DNA of 64,000 nt from a virus (lineage: Duplodnaviria; Caudoviricetes), in the IMG/VR virus record IMGVR_UViG_3300014968_000012, positions 23,250 through 87,249 of that record, one strand, 5' to 3'. Under the pieces are notes generated by a model. It did no database searches. It had not been told where the DNA came from and saw only the letters and a program-made list of their open reading frames with translations. Shown one piece after another: positions 4,929-56,068 of the stretch. The first letter of the stretch is position 1; each line of letters begins with the position of its first letter. Both the position numbers and the translations under genes were made by a program.

Positions 4929-6695
4929 ATGAACCTGCTTGAGGAACTGATCCAGGCCCGCAACGGGGCTGAGTCGGAAGAGGCCCGGTTCTCGGCGATG
5001 GCCGACGTCCTGGCCGCTCATCCGGACGCGGACCTGGCGACCCTGATCAACGAGGCGTCGGCGAACGGTGACGCGCTGTTCGCGCTCGGGGACGACATGT
5101 CCGACGACGACGTGGAGACGATCGAGGCCCTGGCCGACGTCCGCCAGGCCGCCGAGCGCCGCACGGACGAGCTCGCGACGCTGCGGGCGGCCCGTACGAA
5201 GCGCGCGGCTGAGGCTCTGGAGCGGGCCAAGGCCAAGCGCGCGGCGGCCGCTGAGGGTGGCGACGGCGGCGACGGCGGCGAGGGTGAGGAAGGCGACGGC
5301 GGCGAGGAAGGCGGCGAGGGTGACGGCCGCCGGCGTCGCAGTTCCAACGCCGTGGTGCGCGACCGGCGCGCCCAGCTCGGGCAGATCCGGTCGTACAACC
5401 CGGGCAACCGGAACGAGGCCCAGCGCGCCCGGCCGAATGAGGGGTTCTGGACGATCGAGTCCAGCACCGGCGTGGACCTCGGGGACCTGTCCGGCCTGGC
5501 CGCGGCGGTCCAGCGGCGCATCGGCGGCCTGGAGCGCGCCGGCGTCGGCCGGACCGTGGAGGCGTCTATCGCGATGATCCGGCGCACGCTGCCGGAAGAG
5601 TACTTCGCGCAGGACGGCGGCAAGGAAGAGACCGTCACGCTGGCACAGCTTGACTCGATCAGGGACGAGCGGGCGGCGGCGCTGGTCGCGGCCGGCGGAT
5701 GGTGTGCGCCCTCAGAGATCATTTATACGCTGTGCCCGACGGCCAGCATGGAAGGTCTTCTGGACCACCCGACGGTCATCGTCCGGCGCGGTGGTCTGCG
5801 CTGGCCGCAGACGCCGGATTTCTCGACTGTGTACGGGAATGTCGGGTTCAACCAGTCGGAATCGCAGGCCGCGGCCGGGACCACGAAGACGTGCTACGAC
5901 ATCACGTGCCCCGGGTTCTCTGAGCAGCGGATGAACGCCATCGGGCTGTGCTTGAGGAGTGGAATCCTCACGGCTCAGGCGTACCCCGAGCTCGTGGAGT
6001 ACTACGTGGAACAGAGCCTCGTGGCTCATGCCCACCAGGTGAACGCCTTCAAGCTCGCGCAGATGCAGAGCCTCGCCACGACGGTGCACTTCCAGCCGGT
6101 GTCCGGCACCCCGAACACCATCGGGTACGGCCCCGGCGCGTTCGCGTCCATCCTGGGCTCCCTGGAGATCCAGGTGGAAGACCTGCGCGCGAAGTACAGG
6201 TGGGGCCTGAACGAGGTCCTGGAGTGCGTCGCGCCGACCTGGGCCGAGCCGCTGATCCGGTCGGACCTGTCCAAGCGCACGGGCGTGGACCTGGCGAACG
6301 TCACTGACGAGATGATCGCCGAGTACTTCGCCAACCGGTCCATGAACCTGACCCTGGTCCGGGATTGGCAGGACGCTGCGACAACCTCCGGTGGCGCCGG
6401 CTTCGGCGGCACCACGCCGATGCTGGCGTACCCGGCGACGGTGGGCTTCCTGCTCTACCACCCGGACACGTACATCATCGGCCAGGCCGACGTCATCGAC
6501 CTGTCGGCGATCTACGACAGCACGAACGTCCAGACGAACACCTTCACGCGGCTGTTCTCGGAGGAAGGCGTCCTGGTGGGGCGCCGGTGCTTCGAGCCGC
6601 GGTTCGTCCAGGTGGACACGTGCCCGACGGGTCTCACCGGCGGGTGGATCGCGCCGGCCACGTCCCTGCCGGTCCTCACCTGCCCGGCGGCGTAG
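4929..6695 (+). CDS. Major capsid protein (hexamer type) with N-terminal scaffold-like region
   Basis: AAGGWCAPSE..Y motif after a ~250 aa coiled-coil/acidic leader; RBS present; followed by a hairpin. Confidence 0.9.
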   Translation: MNLLEELIQARNGAESEEARFSAMADVLAAHPDADLATLINEASANGDALFALGDDMSDDDVETIEALADVRQAAERRTDELATLRAARTKRAAEALERAKAKRAAAAEGGDGGDGGEGEEGDGGEEGGEGDGRRRRSSNAVVRDRRAQLGQIRSYNPGNRNEAQRARPNEGFWTIESSTGVDLGDLSGLAAAVQRRIGGLERAGVGRTVEASIAMIRRTLPEEYFAQDGGKEETVTLAQLDSIRDERAAALVAAGGWCAPSEIIYTLCPTASMEGLLDHPTVIVRRGGLRWPQTPDFSTVYGNVGFNQSESQAAAGTTKTCYDITCPGFSEQRMNAIGLCLRSGILTAQAYPELVEYYVEQSLVAHAHQVNAFKLAQMQSLATTVHFQPVSGTPNTIGYGPGAFASILGSLEIQVEDLRAKYRWGLNEVLECVAPTWAEPLIRSDLSKRTGVDLANVTDEMIAEYFANRSMNLTLVRDWQDAATTSGGAGFGGTTPMLAYPATVGFLLYHPDTYIIGQADVIDLSAIYDSTNVQTNTFTRLFSEEGVLVGRRCFEPRFVQVDTCPTGLTGGWIAPATSLPVLTCPAA

Positions 6696-6705
6696 CCCTC
6701 TCTCC

Positions 6706-6739
6706 CGCGCGGCCGCGATTCTCTGTCGCGGCCGCGCGG
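6706..6739 (+). terminator. Hairpin after the capsid gene
   Basis: cgcgcggccgcga-ttctctg-tcgcggccgcgcg inverted repeat just after the stop. Confidence 0.6.
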
Positions 6740-6787
6740 CCCCTGTATCAAAACCCTGGCAAACACTGAACTTGAAAGGCGCCGGCC

Positions 6788-7939
6788 GTGGTCGAAGCAC
6801 AGGACTGGGTCAGCCCACCGAACTATCAGTTCAAGGGCTACGGGCTTTTCGCCGCGGCGACCGTGATCGAGCAAGAGCGGCCGTTCCTCGGGCAAATCGT
6901 CTGGGAGCAAGACGCGTGCACGATGTCCGACAACTGGGCGATCTGTGTCAACCCGGGGGCGCCGGCGGCGAACACCGGCGTCGGAACGCTGACGTCGTCG
7001 CTCGGTTCAAGCTCGCCGACGGCGACGGTGGTCACCTTCACGATCACCGGAATGCACCCGTCCGCCACGGTCCAGATCAACCCCGGCGACGGCCGGCCGC
7101 TCCCGGCGACGGTCACCACCGACGGGTCCGGGAACGCGACGCAGACGTACACGTACGTGAATCCGGGCGTCTACAACGCGTCCGCGTCCACCACGGACGG
7201 CCCGCCCCCGACCAACATCACGTGGACGCAGGTCAACATCAATGCGTCCCTGATGCCGAAGATCATCCCGGGGCCGCAGTACGGCAACGCCCGGGGCTTC
7301 GCCGTCTACAACGGGATTCAGTGCAACAAGCTCGGGCTGACTGAGGAAGTCAAGCGCGCGCAACGGCGCCTGATGTGGACCGAAGAGCGCCAGGTGGAGT
7401 ACTGCCTCATGTCGGGCCAGGGCGGGAACTTCCCCTACCTGGGCGGCTGGAACGTCGGCGTGGCCGGCGGCGTCCAGGTGCTCGACCCCGGCGGCGGTTC
7501 GGTCCTGGGGTTCGTGGACGCGCTGGGGTGGCTGGAAGGGGAGCTGGGCGAGCAACTGGGGCCGCAGGGCATCATTCACGCCTCGCGGTACCTGGCGCCG
7601 ACGTTCGCAGCGAACTGGCAAACACAGCTCACGTCCACCTCGGGCGCCAGCGCGCAGTCCAGGACCACGACGGCCGGGACCAAGACGGTTTTCGGGTCGG
7701 GCTATCCGGCCATCGGGCCGGACGGCAAGCCGGCGGCCGCCGGCACGTCGTGGCTGTACGCCACGGGCCCGATCGTGATCTACCGCTCCCCGGTCCAGAC
7801 ATACGAGGTGTTCGCCGGCACGTCCGCGACGCCGCGGAACACGGCCATCGTGCTGGCCGAGCGTCAGTACATGATCCAAGTGGACTGTCCGATTCTCGCC
7901 GTTCAGTGCAGCGTGCCGGCCCCTCCCCACCTGCCCTAA
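6788..7939 (+). CDS. Second capsid protein (pentamer-type) with an inserted Ig/PKD-like domain
   Basis: YGLF..A, F.VY...C, ERQVE, G.IHA, WLYATG, LAERQY...DC pattern; Thr-rich beta insert containing INPGDG...TYTY.NPGVYNAS. Confidence 0.7.
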   Translation: MVEAQDWVSPPNYQFKGYGLFAAATVIEQERPFLGQIVWEQDACTMSDNWAICVNPGAPAANTGVGTLTSSLGSSSPTATVVTFTITGMHPSATVQINPGDGRPLPATVTTDGSGNATQTYTYVNPGVYNASASTTDGPPPTNITWTQVNINASLMPKIIPGPQYGNARGFAVYNGIQCNKLGLTEEVKRAQRRLMWTEERQVEYCLMSGQGGNFPYLGGWNVGVAGGVQVLDPGGGSVLGFVDALGWLEGELGEQLGPQGIIHASRYLAPTFAANWQTQLTSTSGASAQSRTTTAGTKTVFGSGYPAIGPDGKPAAAGTSWLYATGPIVIYRSPVQTYEVFAGTSATPRNTAIVLAERQYMIQVDCPILAVQCSVPAPPHLP

Positions 7940-52262: not shown

Positions 52263-52389
52263 GCGCGAGGGGTCCCGCCGGCGCGACGTCGCCGACGGGA
52301 CCCCCGTCGCCGGTGACATTCCCTGGCACATCGCCGGTGACATCCTGAAACGCACATCGCACGATGCTGCGTAGAGTAGCGTCGGCCCT

Positions 52390-52728
52390 ATGGGAAACCT
52401 CATGAATGCCGACGACGCCCCGACGTCGCGCATGGACGGCGCCGGCTTCGTCGCCGTCCCGCTGTGGGTGCTGCGCTCGGGGATCTCAAGCCACGCGTTC
52501 AAGCTGTACGCGCACATCGCGGCCATGACGCCGCCGGTGCCGCCTATCCCGGGCGTGATGGTGCTCCAATCCGATCTCGCGACCTTCCTCGGACTGGCCA
52601 ACGGGGTGGCGGCCCGGCGGTACGTGGACGAGCTCGTGGCCGCCGGCATGCTCGTTGTGGAAGAGGTCCGCACCCACGACGGCATGCGGCGCCGGAACCG
52701 CTACAGCGTGGTGCGGGACAAGCCGTGA
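52390..52728 (+). CDS. wHTH protein, paralog of the Rep N-terminal domain
   Basis: FVAVPLWVL..GIS..AFKLYA...LA..LGL......RYVDELVAAG......RNRY. Confidence 0.75.
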   Translation: MGNLMNADDAPTSRMDGAGFVAVPLWVLRSGISSHAFKLYAHIAAMTPPVPPIPGVMVLQSDLATFLGLANGVAARRYVDELVAAGMLVVEEVRTHDGMRRRNRYSVVRDKP

Positions 52729-53093
52729 CCGACCACCACGAGACGACCCCGGAGGACGTCGCCGAGATGCAGCGCTGGCCCGCCGGCCGCAAGCTACTGG
52801 CGGCCCGTGACGCGCTGATCCACACGCACGCCATCGCGCCGGAAGACGTCCGGCTCACCCACGTTCCTGCGGCGCCGCCGGCATCCATCACGGCGAGCGC
52901 CGTCGGTATCAGCGTGCGCCGAGACGGCGTGTGGTGCTCCCTGGAGTGGGACCAGGCGGCTTTCGTCTGGAACCTTCGTCGCGGGACGCTGGACGTCGGC
53001 CGGGTCCCCGCTTCGACGCCGTTCCTGTTCGGCGACAGTGACGCCGACCTCGTCTATGGCGGCAAGGTGGCATCACTTCTGGCCGGGGGGTGA
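52725..53093 (+). CDS. Hypothetical protein
   Basis: GTGA overlap. Confidence 0.65.
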   Translation: MTDHHETTPEDVAEMQRWPAGRKLLAARDALIHTHAIAPEDVRLTHVPAAPPASITASAVGISVRRDGVWCSLEWDQAAFVWNLRRGTLDVGRVPASTPFLFGDSDADLVYGGKVASLLAGG

Positions 53094-53100
53094 CCGCGCG

Positions 53101-53436
53101 ATGACCGACGCCGACACGGCCCCCGCGCTGGCCGCCGAGCCCGAGCCGGTGGCCATGGCGATGCGAAGCGGCATCGTGCACAACGTGCGCGAGCGCGACG
53201 GCCTCATGTTCCACGTCTTCCGTCCGGATCCCTCCACCATGGCGGCGTGCTCGGGGTGGCTTCTGGACGATCTCTTCGTTCTGCCTCCCGACGAGGTCCC
53301 GTACTCGCGCCGGTGCCAGCGGCCGGCGTGCCGGTCGAAGTGGGAAGCCGCGCTGAAGCCGCCAGCGGGGAACGGGGGCGGGCCGGCGGCGGCCTCGAAC
53401 CTTTCCGGCGCGGTGTGCGGACCGCTCGAACCCTGA
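53101..53436 (+). CDS. Hypothetical Zn-binding protein
   Basis: H...ACSG...RCQRPAC. Confidence 0.6.
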   Translation: MTDADTAPALAAEPEPVAMAMRSGIVHNVRERDGLMFHVFRPDPSTMAACSGWLLDDLFVLPPDEVPYSRRCQRPACRSKWEAALKPPAGNGGGPAAASNLSGAVCGPLEP

Positions 53437-53575: not shown

Positions 53576-53884
53576 ATGACCGACGCCAAGACCACCGCCC
53601 CCGAGCCGCCGGCCGCCGACGAGAACCGCCGCGTCCTGGTCATCACGGGCCCGGACGGCGAGGGGACGCAGTACCAGGACGCGACACAGATCAGCTTCAG
53701 CACGGCCGGCGACGGCCGCGCCGTCATGGCGATCTCGTTCGGCCGGCCCGACGTCGGCGTGGACATGCACCTGGTGGTGGCACTGACGCAAGAGACGCTG
53801 GACGCCGTCCTGACCGACGGCCGCGAGTACCACGACCGTGCGAACGGCCGCGGCCGCTGGAAGGGGATCAACCCCGAGCGGTAG
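53576..53884 (+). CDS. Hypothetical protein (cassette gene)
   Basis: Downstream of a cassette. Confidence 0.7.
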   Translation: MTDAKTTAPEPPAADENRRVLVITGPDGEGTQYQDATQISFSTAGDGRAVMAISFGRPDVGVDMHLVVALTQETLDAVLTDGREYHDRANGRGRWKGINPER

Positions 53885-53955
53885 CCGTACGCTGGGCACA
53901 GGACGGACCACGTTCTTGCCCAGTGCGACCACACGAAGGCTTGGAGTGAAGTCCA

Positions 53956-54078
53956 GGAAGCCCCCCGGCGTGGAAACCGGGGGGCTTCCGCCGTTCCCGG
54001 GCCCGAGCGCCGGCGCGCGCCGGCCAGCGCCGGACAGAGAGAAGCCCCCCTGGTCTCCCACGAACCAGGGGGGCTTCT
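53956..54078. terminator. Two tandem GAAGCCCCCC...GGGGGGCTTC hairpins between convergent units
   Basis: ggaagccccccgg/ccggggggcttcc and gaagcccccctgg/ccagggggcttc. Confidence 0.65.
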
Positions 54079-54146
54079 GTGCAGACGAACAGCGCCCGGA
54101 CGAAGCGCTGGTCTGGACCGGATCGTAACGGCCGCGCGCGCCGGGA

Positions 54147-54494
54147 TCAGGGATGCTCGTCGGGTTCGTCATCCTGTGGTGGTACCGATTCAGCCCCGTG
54201 ATGTCCCTCGCGCACGTGCGCGTGGAGCTCGGCGGCTATCGTCTTGAGCCGCTTCCGGATATCGATTTGGTCGGCGCCCTGCGCGGTCAGGATGGCCAGG
54301 ATCGCGGTCACGTCGTCGCGCAGGGACCGGGACCCGTTCTGGGCCGGCCCGGGCGTGAGCTCGTCCACCCCGACCTGTGTCACGTTCTCCAGGCGCCGGA
54401 TGTGCCGCTTGATCCACCGGCACACCACGGCGCTGAGGAAACCGGCGATCCCGCACAGCGACGCCGCGGTGGAAATCCACTGTGTCAGGTCCAC
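54147..54494 (-). CDS. Single-TM membrane protein (holin-associated / DUF2746-like)
   Basis: N-terminal TM helix followed by EL.P...NGS.SLRD.V coiled coil. Confidence 0.55.
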   Translation of the reverse strand: MDLTQWISTAASLCGIAGFLSAVVCRWIKRHIRRLENVTQVGVDELTPGPAQNGSRSLRDDVTAILAILTAQGADQIDIRKRLKTIAAELHAHVREGHHGAESVPPQDDEPDEHP

Positions 54495-54709
54495 CAGATC
54501 ACCCCGTCCGCCGGCGGTAGGCCGCCCGGGCGCGCCGGAGTCGCCAGACAGAGCGACGCGCCCGGACGTGGCGCCATGCTCGCACATCCGGGCGCCCCGC
54601 GATCATGAGGCGCGCTGGCGCCCGAGCGTACGGGATCTGACGAAACCCCGTAGCGGCCAGCGGGGGCCGGCTGTACCGTGGCCGAACCGCCGCGCTCCGG
54701 TATGAAAAA

Positions 54710-55600
54710 CGCCAACATCCATTGGAAGGGATGGGGCCGATCCTCGGGGCGCGGCGCTTTCGACGCCGGCCACGCCCGAGCTGGGCGCCCGGCGCGCCGG
54801 CGGGGAGGTAGCGCCGGGGGGGTGCGCGCGCCTGGTCTGCGAGCGCGCCCCCGAGCCCCGGGTACAAGGCGCGGCGGTGTCCGCGCCCAACCCTCACGTG
54901 AGCGCGGACACCGCCGCCGCGGCGCTCACCGCCCCCCGGGGCGCCGCAGGGGCGCCCCGCCGGATCCGGTCACGGCCGGGCGCCCTGGTCCTGTTGGCAC
55001 GCACGCCCGGCGTCCGGCTGATGCGGGAGCCGATTACCGACGTCGGGACGTGCGTGCGGTGAGCGATCCCCACATCACCGCGGGCGGCCACTCGCGGAAC
55101 AGGCTATGTCGCACAAGTGACGCGTGTCCGGCGATTGGGATAATTCGTTCCCTGATTCACGGTCGCGGCCCGCCTTCCCTCCAGGGAAAAGACGGGCCGC
55201 GCGCGGGGGTGGGGAAGCGTCGGGAGCAGTTGACGCGTACACCCGGCATCCGAAACGAAAGGGAGGTTCCCGTCCGTCCTTGGCCGTGGCCGCCGCCCGA
55301 CGCCGTCACCCTCACGACACGCCCCACACAACGGTCGGGGTCGTTGCGACACACGGCGCGTTCCTTGCAGGGAAGTTACGCAGGGTGCTGCGGGGGAGTG
55401 TCGTCCGGCTATCGTCGGGCGGCGGCCACCGGGAGACAGACTAGGGCGCCCCGGCCGAGCGTGTCAGGGGAATGCGACAATCCGCGTTCGTTTGTTCACG
55501 GAAAGTCACGTCACCGTCGGCGACGTGCGCCGGAACCCTATTCCCCTGTGTATGCGCGCTCTTGCATGCGCGACACAGTGTCAGCGTTCTGCGACCTAGC
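54710..55600 (+). ncRNA. Candidate large structured non-coding RNA (~0.9 kb)
   Basis: No credible ORF; perfect 16-bp and 17-bp stems, a ~20-bp long-range stem 54973-54995/55435-55457 and many nested hairpins; G-U pairs favour the + strand; boundaries approximate. Confidence 0.55.
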
Positions 55601-55620
55601 GCAACGTGGCGCGGTACGCC

Positions 55621-55649
55621 GAAGCCCCCGGCGCGTGGCCGGGGGCTTC
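55621..55649. terminator. Bidirectional hairpin
   Basis: gaagcccccgg-cgcgtgg-ccgggggcttc. Confidence 0.7.
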
Positions 55650-55672
55650 GGCGGAACGGTGGCGCCGGTGGG

Positions 55673-56068
55673 TCAGCGGACGTAGTGCGCGCGGCCGTAG
55701 GTCTTGCGGTGGACCATCACGACCGGCCGGCGGGCGGCGCGCTTGGCGGCCTGCGCGGCGCGGTACGCCTTGCTCTCCTCCACGCTGTCCTCTTCCCGGT
55801 CCATCCACGTGGCGCGCGGCGAGGGGTGCTCCAGGCGGGCCCGGGCCTGCGCGAAGCGGCGCACGGCGGCCACCTCGTCGCGCGTCGGGTTCGCGATGTG
55901 GTCCAGCTCCATGGACATCCAGAACGCCACGGCGTCGGCGCGGCGGTGGCCCAGCTCCACGTCCTCGGGCGTGGCCGACACGACCGGGAACCAGTCGGGC
56001 AGGGTGTCCACGATCGCGTCCACGCCGAGCTCGGCGGCGCGGTCCTGGGCGGTGGCGGTGATGGTCAT
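55673..56068 (-). CDS. Hypothetical protein (cassette gene)
   Basis: Downstream of a cassette. Confidence 0.7.
   Translation of the reverse strand: MTITATAQDRAAELGVDAIVDTLPDWFPVVSATPEDVELGHRRADAVAFWMSMELDHIANPTRDEVAAVRRFAQARARLEHPSPRATWMDREEDSVEESKAYRAAQAAKRAARRPVVMVHRKTYGRAHYVR

Follow-up and report, generated by a model that had tools for sequence, protein, structure and literature searches.

Non-coding RNAs transcribed from regions of actinophage genomes that lack open reading frames (ORFs) have only one characterised precedent, the Pleft RNAs of the Cluster A mycobacteriophages L5 and D29, whose function is still unknown (PMC5712189). Together with StarStuff, these phages express abundant, stable non-coding RNAs from an ORF-free region of about 500 bp (PMC5712189). 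The early Pleft RNAs map to the genome's right end, have been demonstrated by RNA sequencing (RNA-seq) and northern analysis, and show toxicity upon expression (Dedrick et al. 2017, PMC5712189). Among structured RNAs, the GOLLD, ROOL and OLE families have been defined by deep covariation across many lineages (PMC12286853, PMC5737381). Here, we analyse a non-coding gap of 1,178 nt (positions 54495-55672) in a 64-kb stretch of viral DNA, referred to as the window, which comprises bases 23250-87249 of the 87,249-nt IMG/VR virus record IMGVR_UViG_3300014968_000012. An original prediction had placed in this gap a novel, large structured RNA of about 0.9 kb, encoded on the plus strand. The gap lies between two minus-strand genes, a 131-aa gene upstream (55673-56068) and a 115-aa gene downstream (54147-54494).

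The nearest precedent for the gap is the Cluster A Pleft region, with which it shares an actinophage setting and an ORF-free tract of several hundred base pairs behind a candidate phage promoter. It differs from that region in being known from sequence alone, in having no sequence relation to it, and in being followed by a gene on the same strand. With GOLLD (RF01998), ROOL and OLE, the gap shares a size class of 0.5-0.9 kb and a large number of hairpins, and with GOLLD and ROOL also a phage or mobile-element context. Unlike these families, it has no Rfam match at E ≤ 10 above chance level (best E 0.17, to a miRNA hairpin model, over 54400-55800), is represented by two or three near-identical haplotypes, and has most of its pairs unconserved. 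The original failure to assign it to any known family was borne out across the whole window, where Rfam 15 returned no matches at gathering thresholds, its models for raiA, group I and II introns, tmRNA and RNase P included. A further comparison is offered by stem-loops that stabilise mRNAs from the 5' end, such as those of the Escherichia coli ompA leader, the Bacillus ermC and aprE leaders, and the phage SP82 stabiliser, all of which are short hairpins. In the gap, similarly, a stable stem starts no more than 1-2 nt from a predicted transcript start and is followed by a long leader; the difference is that the domain in question is a 144-nt, multi-helix structure, and that both its start and its stabilising effect are predicted.

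We tentatively interpret the gap as a composite control region, operating mainly on the minus strand, from which a leftward, hairpin-rich leader or non-coding RNA (ncRNA) of about 0.73-0.94 kb would arise ahead of the 115-aa gene; this is our leading explanation, one that we would place a little short of probable. In the proposed arrangement, a terminator-type hairpin, T1 (55617-55653), would close the upstream 131-aa gene, and conserved blocks at 55467-55612 would represent upstream DNA kept for its sequence rather than its pairing. About 150 nt beyond T1, an operator-less promoter-like site, Pgap (55467-55438), would initiate leftward transcription at about 55430. The initial 144 nt of the RNA would fold into a very stable stem-loop, closed by a 17-bp stem, that would act as a 5' stabiliser. 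The RNA would then cross about 0.9 kb of hairpin-dense sequence into the 115-aa gene (start 54494), which encodes a putative membrane protein and would be co-transcribed with its leader. Alternatively, the transcript may end at a weak hairpin and a run of five U residues (U5) at 54703, yielding an RNA of about 0.73 kb, with read-through controlling the gene. The presumed large ncRNA is most likely a long structured 5' leader.

The non-coding nature of the gap is evident from a GC frame plot, in which both minus-strand flanking genes display a high-GC coding signature and no coding phase appears between them; the ORF-poor interval of more than 1.1 kb noted originally was in this way substantiated at 1,178 nt. 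The gap begins at 54495 because a 2-nt indel in two related contigs (L023 and L024), located upstream of GTG 54494, excludes the longer ATG-54587 start of the 115-aa gene and places its start at this GTG. Gene callers position a 327-aa plus-strand ORF in the gap. A protein-coding gap was rejected on the properties of this ORF: the GC content at its third codon positions (GC3) is about 0.72, Pfam offers no match, and neither 5.8 billion clusters nor 1.84 billion representatives contain a homolog. The gap is not an assembly artefact, as confirmed by three independent assemblies (L011, L018 and L019) that reproduce its sequence identically or nearly so.

Every stem listed in the original prediction is present in the sequence. 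These include a perfect 16-bp stem (54871-86/54902-17), a perfect 17-bp stem (55286-302/55413-29), the stems 55164-72/55193-201 and 55465-73/55540-48, the pairing acgacac/gtgtcgt, the long hairpin 54997-55057, and the hairpin 55617-55653. The gap also folds beyond shuffled controls. Whole-sequence shuffles gave z values of -6.65 for the plus strand and -9.74 for the minus strand, and shuffles within 80-nt blocks, which keep local GC and an 83%-GC island, gave -6.5 and -8.2, respectively, compared with +0.6 to -3.6 for 20 control strand-segments of the same length from the same genome. The predicted transcript (55430-54470) yielded a z of -7.5. Values fall only moderately below zero in 200-nt sliding windows, as these cut long-range stems. 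The minimum free energy (MFE) folds contain 24 G-U pairs on each strand, and owing to this symmetry a wobble count from a single sequence is uninformative for strand. The earlier view that wobble pairs point to the plus strand consequently fails for the gap overall and survives for the long-range stem 54973-95/55435-57, which on the plus strand pairs with a probability of about 1 and includes two G-U pairs, and which does not form on the minus strand. Five of the 18 genome copies of the palindromic 8-mer GGGCGCCC lie inside the gap (at 54590, 54783, 54950, 54978 and 55444), and any two of them can pair, contributing to such long-range "stems". A miniature inverted-repeat transposable element (MITE) or inverton built on the 17-bp inverted repeat was rejected, there being no target duplication, other copies or invertase, and a constant orientation in all contigs. 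Rep iterons were looked for in the gap and are absent.

The promoter assignment derives from a pattern that recurs in the window. Fourteen near-identical promoter-operator cassettes were identified, each with a -35 TGACA, an 18-nt spacer and a -10 TANNNT, and with an operator dyad, ACAGTG-N10-CACTGT, inside the spacer. The pattern TGACA-N18-TANNNT has 15 matches in the 64 kb, against 0.10 expected. Fourteen of these are the cassettes, and the fifteenth, the sole non-cassette match, is Pgap (55438-55466, minus strand); the pattern is missing from the genome's first 20 kb and from L016, a distant relative. Pgap, which reads CTGACA, 18-nt spacer, TAGTCT (55438-55467 with the complete -35 hexamer), has the geometry of the cassette promoters without the operator dyad in its spacer, and is not a full cassette. 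Its hexamers are kept in the divergent contigs L014, L015 and L006, and its spacer carries three changes. Conserved hexamers around a varying spacer are what a promoter, and not a helix arm, would be expected to show, and the Pgap spacer and -10 coincide with the 3' arm of the proposed long-range closing stem. Transcription from Pgap, placed 6-8 nt past the -10, is predicted to start at about 55429-55431, which corresponds to the first base of the 17-bp stem. For the 115-aa gene itself, neither a cassette promoter nor any other recognisable promoter was found. The GGGCGCCC copy at 55444 was considered as an operator within the Pgap spacer and rejected, as it is not conserved in L014.

All usable relatives were obtained through exact-protein look-ups of the two flanking genes. 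No homologs of the gap were found in 50,697 phage records or in a plasmid collection of 72,556 records. IMG/VR, searched by the flanking proteins, by the Ig-like-domain gene upstream of the portal gene and by conserved 20-21-mers, likewise gave no homolog, and metagenome and genome collections, scanned once each, gave only chance 20-mer matches (L007 and L008). L011, L018 and L019 represent the same strain. A mosaic strain (L009/L010) is nearly identical over 53850-54835, in coding and non-coding DNA alike; its left-flank identity was rejected as a sign of constraint given the equal identity of the adjoining coding DNA, which points to mosaic exchange. The divergent comparator is a second haplotype, about 10% divergent and found in two samples, which covers both flanks of the gap only: L023/L024 span 54495-54922, and L014, L015 and L006 extend from 55162 (or 55207, or 55421) to 55672. 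The centre (54923-55161) has no divergent comparator. Identity to the second haplotype is 95-98% over 54495-54822, 68-72% over 55207-55386 and 79-93% over 55387-55626, with about 87-97% in flanking coding DNA.

Contig ends of relatives in the gap are scattered, at 54835/6 (four contigs), 54911, 54922, 55068-55094, 55162, 55194, 55211, 55421 and 55541. At least 12 independent assemblies break inside it (54835-55541), including L006, L009, L010, L014, L015, L018, L019, L023 and L024, and three assemblies only span it wholly or nearly so; the break shared by four contigs at 54835/6 falls in the loop of a GC-rich hairpin. This scatter is a better fit to GC-rich hairpins combined with strain heterogeneity than to one recombination point. 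A homologous gap is absent from the distant relatives L016 and L017, whose flanking genes are unrelated. L016 contains a 620-nt non-coding, hairpin-dense gap of its own (L016:5062-5682; z -8.3 and -6.6), without similarity to that of the window, situated between unrelated genes about 1.3 kb upstream of a homolog of the membrane protein (48% identity).

Conservation of pairing was assessed with structures predicted from the window sequence alone, on which the changes of the second haplotype were scored over the 415 nt with comparators. The global fold is not conserved on either strand. In plus-strand helices with a probability of at least 0.9, 10-11 changed pairs are broken and 3 kept; at a probability of at least 0.7, 16-19 are broken and 6-7 kept. 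The plus strand looks as though it behaves neutrally. A different picture emerges in the domain 55286-55429, the only one whose variation is informative, in which an invariant 17-bp outer stem (pair probability 0.95-0.98) surrounds 110 nt of about 70% identity. In this 144-nt test, which compares two sequences with the structure derived from one of them, 52 pairs were scored on the minus strand, 99% of cells are paired, and eight of the nine changed pairs are kept. The kept changes comprise two A-U to G-C double changes and six one-sided, wobble-type changes, with one pair lost; slid-partner controls show 31-53% pairing. On the plus strand, by comparison, three of six changed pairs are kept (one double, two one-sided) and three lost, with A-C mismatches where the minus strand has G-U pairs, a result that runs counter to the plus strand as the original choice of RNA strand. 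Fold energies of the domain in the two haplotypes are -88.4 and -96.0 on the minus strand and -86.0 and -86.5 on the plus strand. A small hairpin within the domain is partly deleted in the second haplotype.

Several observations weigh against a leftward leader. Over the minus strand as a whole, at a probability of at least 0.7, broken pairs outnumber kept ones (10-12 against 8-9), and within the 144-nt domain the double-change count in a 7-bp helix hinges on the aligner's placement of a 2-nt gap. The helix 55563-55617 and the long-range stem both read better on the plus strand, which also has a sigma-70-like promoter of its own (55117-55144), and the Pgap hexamers CTGACA and TAGTCT are imperfect. 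The segment 55207-55386 diverges faster than the flanking coding DNA. Finally, the haplotypes number two or three only, none of them spanning 54923-55161, and so narrow a lineage does not allow proof by covariation.

The remaining features are described along the direction of the proposed transcript. The stop codon of the 131-aa gene directly precedes T1, a minus-strand hairpin with a 16-bp perfect stem and a 5-nt loop, whose stem is kept in the second haplotype by a matched C/G insertion. The terminator originally assigned to 55621 is present as a hairpin (55617-55653); the U-tract of a canonical intrinsic terminator is absent from both strands, and T1 probably acts like the U-less hairpins common in actinobacteria. 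It belongs to a phage-specific, terminator-type family of three perfect hairpins with GAAGCCCCC stems, located at gene ends and lacking U-tracts (53956-53989, 54040-54078 and 55617-55653). Next, a conserved block (55560-55612), invariant in L006, L014 and L015, holds the perfect palindrome GACACAGTGTC (55574-55584), which resembles a cassette operator half-site and may serve as an operator. The corresponding motif, CTGACAC[A/T]GTG, which is like the cassette -35/operator half, occurs in two copies: the one at 55574-55584, about 115 nt upstream of Pgap, is invariant in relatives, and the other (54478-54488) lies at the start of the 115-aa gene. Between this block and Pgap, an 84-nt element (55465-55548) is closed by an invariant 9-bp stem (pair probability 0.87 on the plus strand, 0.92 on the minus strand); its arms and adjoining blocks are conserved, and its interior helices are broken in the second haplotype.

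Beyond the 144-nt domain, a minus-strand hairpin at 55207-55244, with an outer GGGUG/CACCC and an inner GCGUC/GACGC stem, keeps its stems in three haplotypes, with single-nucleotide polymorphisms (SNPs) and indels confined to its loop (L019 SNPs at 55225 and 55230). L019 differs over a near-identical 2.4-kb contig by four SNPs only, all of which cluster at 55225-55253, in the loop and linker of the predicted leader. A second hairpin (55164-55201), with a 9-bp stem and an inner ttccc/gggaa pairing, has a probability of 0.64 on the plus strand and 1.00 on the minus strand; its sequence differs in L014, whose contig ends there. The lowest-GC part of the gap (55101-55144) carries promoter-like sites in both directions, each a consensus match only: GTGACG-16-GATAAT with a TG on the plus strand (55117-55144) and CGGACA-18-TAGCCT on the minus strand (55101-55130). 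It is followed by a 61-nt imperfect palindrome, the long hairpin 54997-55057 (probability 1.00 on both strands), and by a hairpin cluster of 83% GC (54818-54959) that includes the 16-bp hairpin 54871-54917 and hairpins at 54818-54852 and 54937-54959. The left third of the gap (54495-54855) may be taken for the distal leader of the 115-aa gene or for its control region. Three haplotypes agree there at 97-98%; given the 92-100% identity of neighbouring coding DNA, this may instead reflect recent recombination. The sole U5 run of the gap (54703-54707, minus strand) lies in this part, after a weak hairpin of about 5 bp (54703-54740). The N-terminal hydrophobic stretch of the 115-aa protein reads, by eye, as a putative membrane helix.

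The alternative that survives best, possible if doubtful, is that the gap is largely an unconstrained spacer, a gene-poor mosaic junction in which terminator-type hairpins and palindromes have accumulated and only T1 and the promoter are functional. Its high foldability would then be a by-product of repeated palindromes in DNA of 72-83% GC. About 20 perfect GC-rich hairpins of at least 11 bp are indeed spread over the phage genome, several of them intergenic, and the mutually pairable GGGCGCCC copies concentrated in the gap fit the same picture. Equally compatible with a spacer are the majority of changed pairs that are broken in the relative, the divergence of 55207-55386 in excess of coding DNA, one uncompensated mismatch of L023/L024 in the perfect 16-bp hairpin 54871-54917, the many contig ends, and a distant relative with real genes at the corresponding place. 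What a spacer does not readily accommodate is folding under block shuffles (z -6.5 to -8.2) well beyond the genome's own range, invariant 17-bp and 9-bp stems amid surroundings of 70% identity, the minus-strand pairing kept in the 144-nt domain, and a leftmost 360 nt that is 97-98% identical.

An unlikely variant of leftward transcription is a large structured ncRNA read from the minus strand and standing by itself, about 0.73 kb long (from about 55430 to 54703), which would be produced from Pgap and form a new class with its own role. An RNA of this kind, about 0.7-0.9 kb from about 55430, would belong to a small soil-actinophage lineage and would act independently of coding capacity, for instance in taking over the host, evading defence, or antiterminating transcription into the membrane-protein gene. 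The evidence from Pgap and the 5' domain applies to it as it does to a leader, the strong excess folding agrees with it, the gap's single U5 run comes after a small hairpin (54703-54740), and the abundant stable RNAs of L5, D29 and StarStuff offer a precedent (PMC5712189). Against it, this terminator hairpin is weak, a separate promoter for the 115-aa gene was not found, homologs were found in near-identical strains only, and covariation is confined to one domain.

Still harder to sustain, and in our assessment distinctly improbable, is a role of the gap as a phage attachment site (attP), in which the palindrome 54997-55057 would form the attachment core, nearby repeats would serve as protein-binding arms, and integration would occur upstream of an actinobacterial rsiG-like gene. 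The original prediction had offered a DNA-level element, a folded single-stranded DNA, as its alternative, and the gap may hold one. In favour stands a single contig, L020 (1,365 nt, JGI sample 3300025911), which is 100% identical to phage 53905-55031 and then continues into 238 nt of host-like sequence (L020:1-238). The switch, at 55031/55032, coincides with the palindrome's apex, an arrangement shared with core-type sites. The host-like fragment encodes an RsiG-like N-terminus (PF22802, E 3.5e-20) together with its upstream region, and has no match in the 50,697 phage or 72,556 plasmid records. L020 represents a lysogen junction or else a chimeric assembly. The gap resembles temperate-actinophage attP cores in being non-coding, in having an inverted repeat at the putative crossover and in being joined to host-like DNA in one hybrid contig, and differs from them in the absence of an adjacent or evidently active integrase and in the single junction; no second host-phage junction, that is, no attL/attR partner of L020, was found. 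An integrase-related gene does exist at genome positions 6003-7142, outside the window, with matches to Phage_int_SAM_1, phrog_1 and the XerD N-domain. In its 379-aa product, matches are confined to the N-terminal SAM-like/XerD domain, with none to a catalytic domain; the protein terminates shortly past a degenerate HxxR motif and, by eye on the translation, lacks the XerD catalytic-tyrosine segment (a second XerD alignment being weak). These features suggest a remnant integrase or a non-catalytic derivative. This Int-like protein is encoded at least 14 kb from the gap rather than adjoining it, the catalytic domains PF00589 and PF00239 are absent from the record, contig ends do not cluster at 55031, and the Rep and ParB-domain proteins of the record are compatible with a non-integrating lifestyle. 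The junction is known from one 1.4-kb metagenome contig, which may be chimeric.

The plus-strand RNA originally proposed, about 0.9 kb long (or about 0.5 kb, from the 55117-55144 promoter to T1) with a domain closed by 54973-95/55435-57, is highly improbable: it can draw on the closing stem, which forms on that strand only, on the sigma-70-like site with T1 downstream, and on the helix 55563-55617, which in the window shows plus-strand G-U pairs and in relatives two double changes, but the 3' arm of the closing stem coincides with Pgap and has three paired positions changed from C to A in L014, L015 and L006, 10-11 of 13-14 changed high-confidence pairs are broken, and the 144-nt domain shows A-C mismatches where the minus strand shows G-U.

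The record that harbours the gap represents an actinophage-type siphovirus from soil, with a GC content of 71% and genes for a MuF/protease fusion, major head and tail proteins, a tape measure protein, RecT, a Rep-like protein and a ParB-domain protein. The phage occurs in rhizosphere samples (JGI 3300009174, 3300025911 and 3300037069; ENA ERZ27252502). A terminase identity for the large gene upstream of the portal gene was dropped, as Pfam gives an Ig-like domain alone. No cultured close relative of the phage was found, and a host search via the phylum of L008, which reached small genomes, returned one chance-level match only. Relative to L009/L010, the window shows an indel of about 840 bp at 52291-53129, with flanks otherwise 93-97% identical; located beside a winged helix-turn-helix (wHTH) repressor-like gene, it looks like a mosaic module boundary.

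Overall, the evidence favours an ordinary class of elements, comprising a promoter, a 5' stem-loop, a structured leader and terminator hairpins, over a new, ornate RNA. If the leftward transcript is real, a small membrane-protein gene of this phage would be controlled through an unusually long (about 0.9 kb), hairpin-dense leader, driven by an unrepressed form of the promoter that, in its operator-bearing version, precedes 14 other sites in the window. The locus would then offer an experimental handle on long structured leaders and ncRNAs in actinophages.

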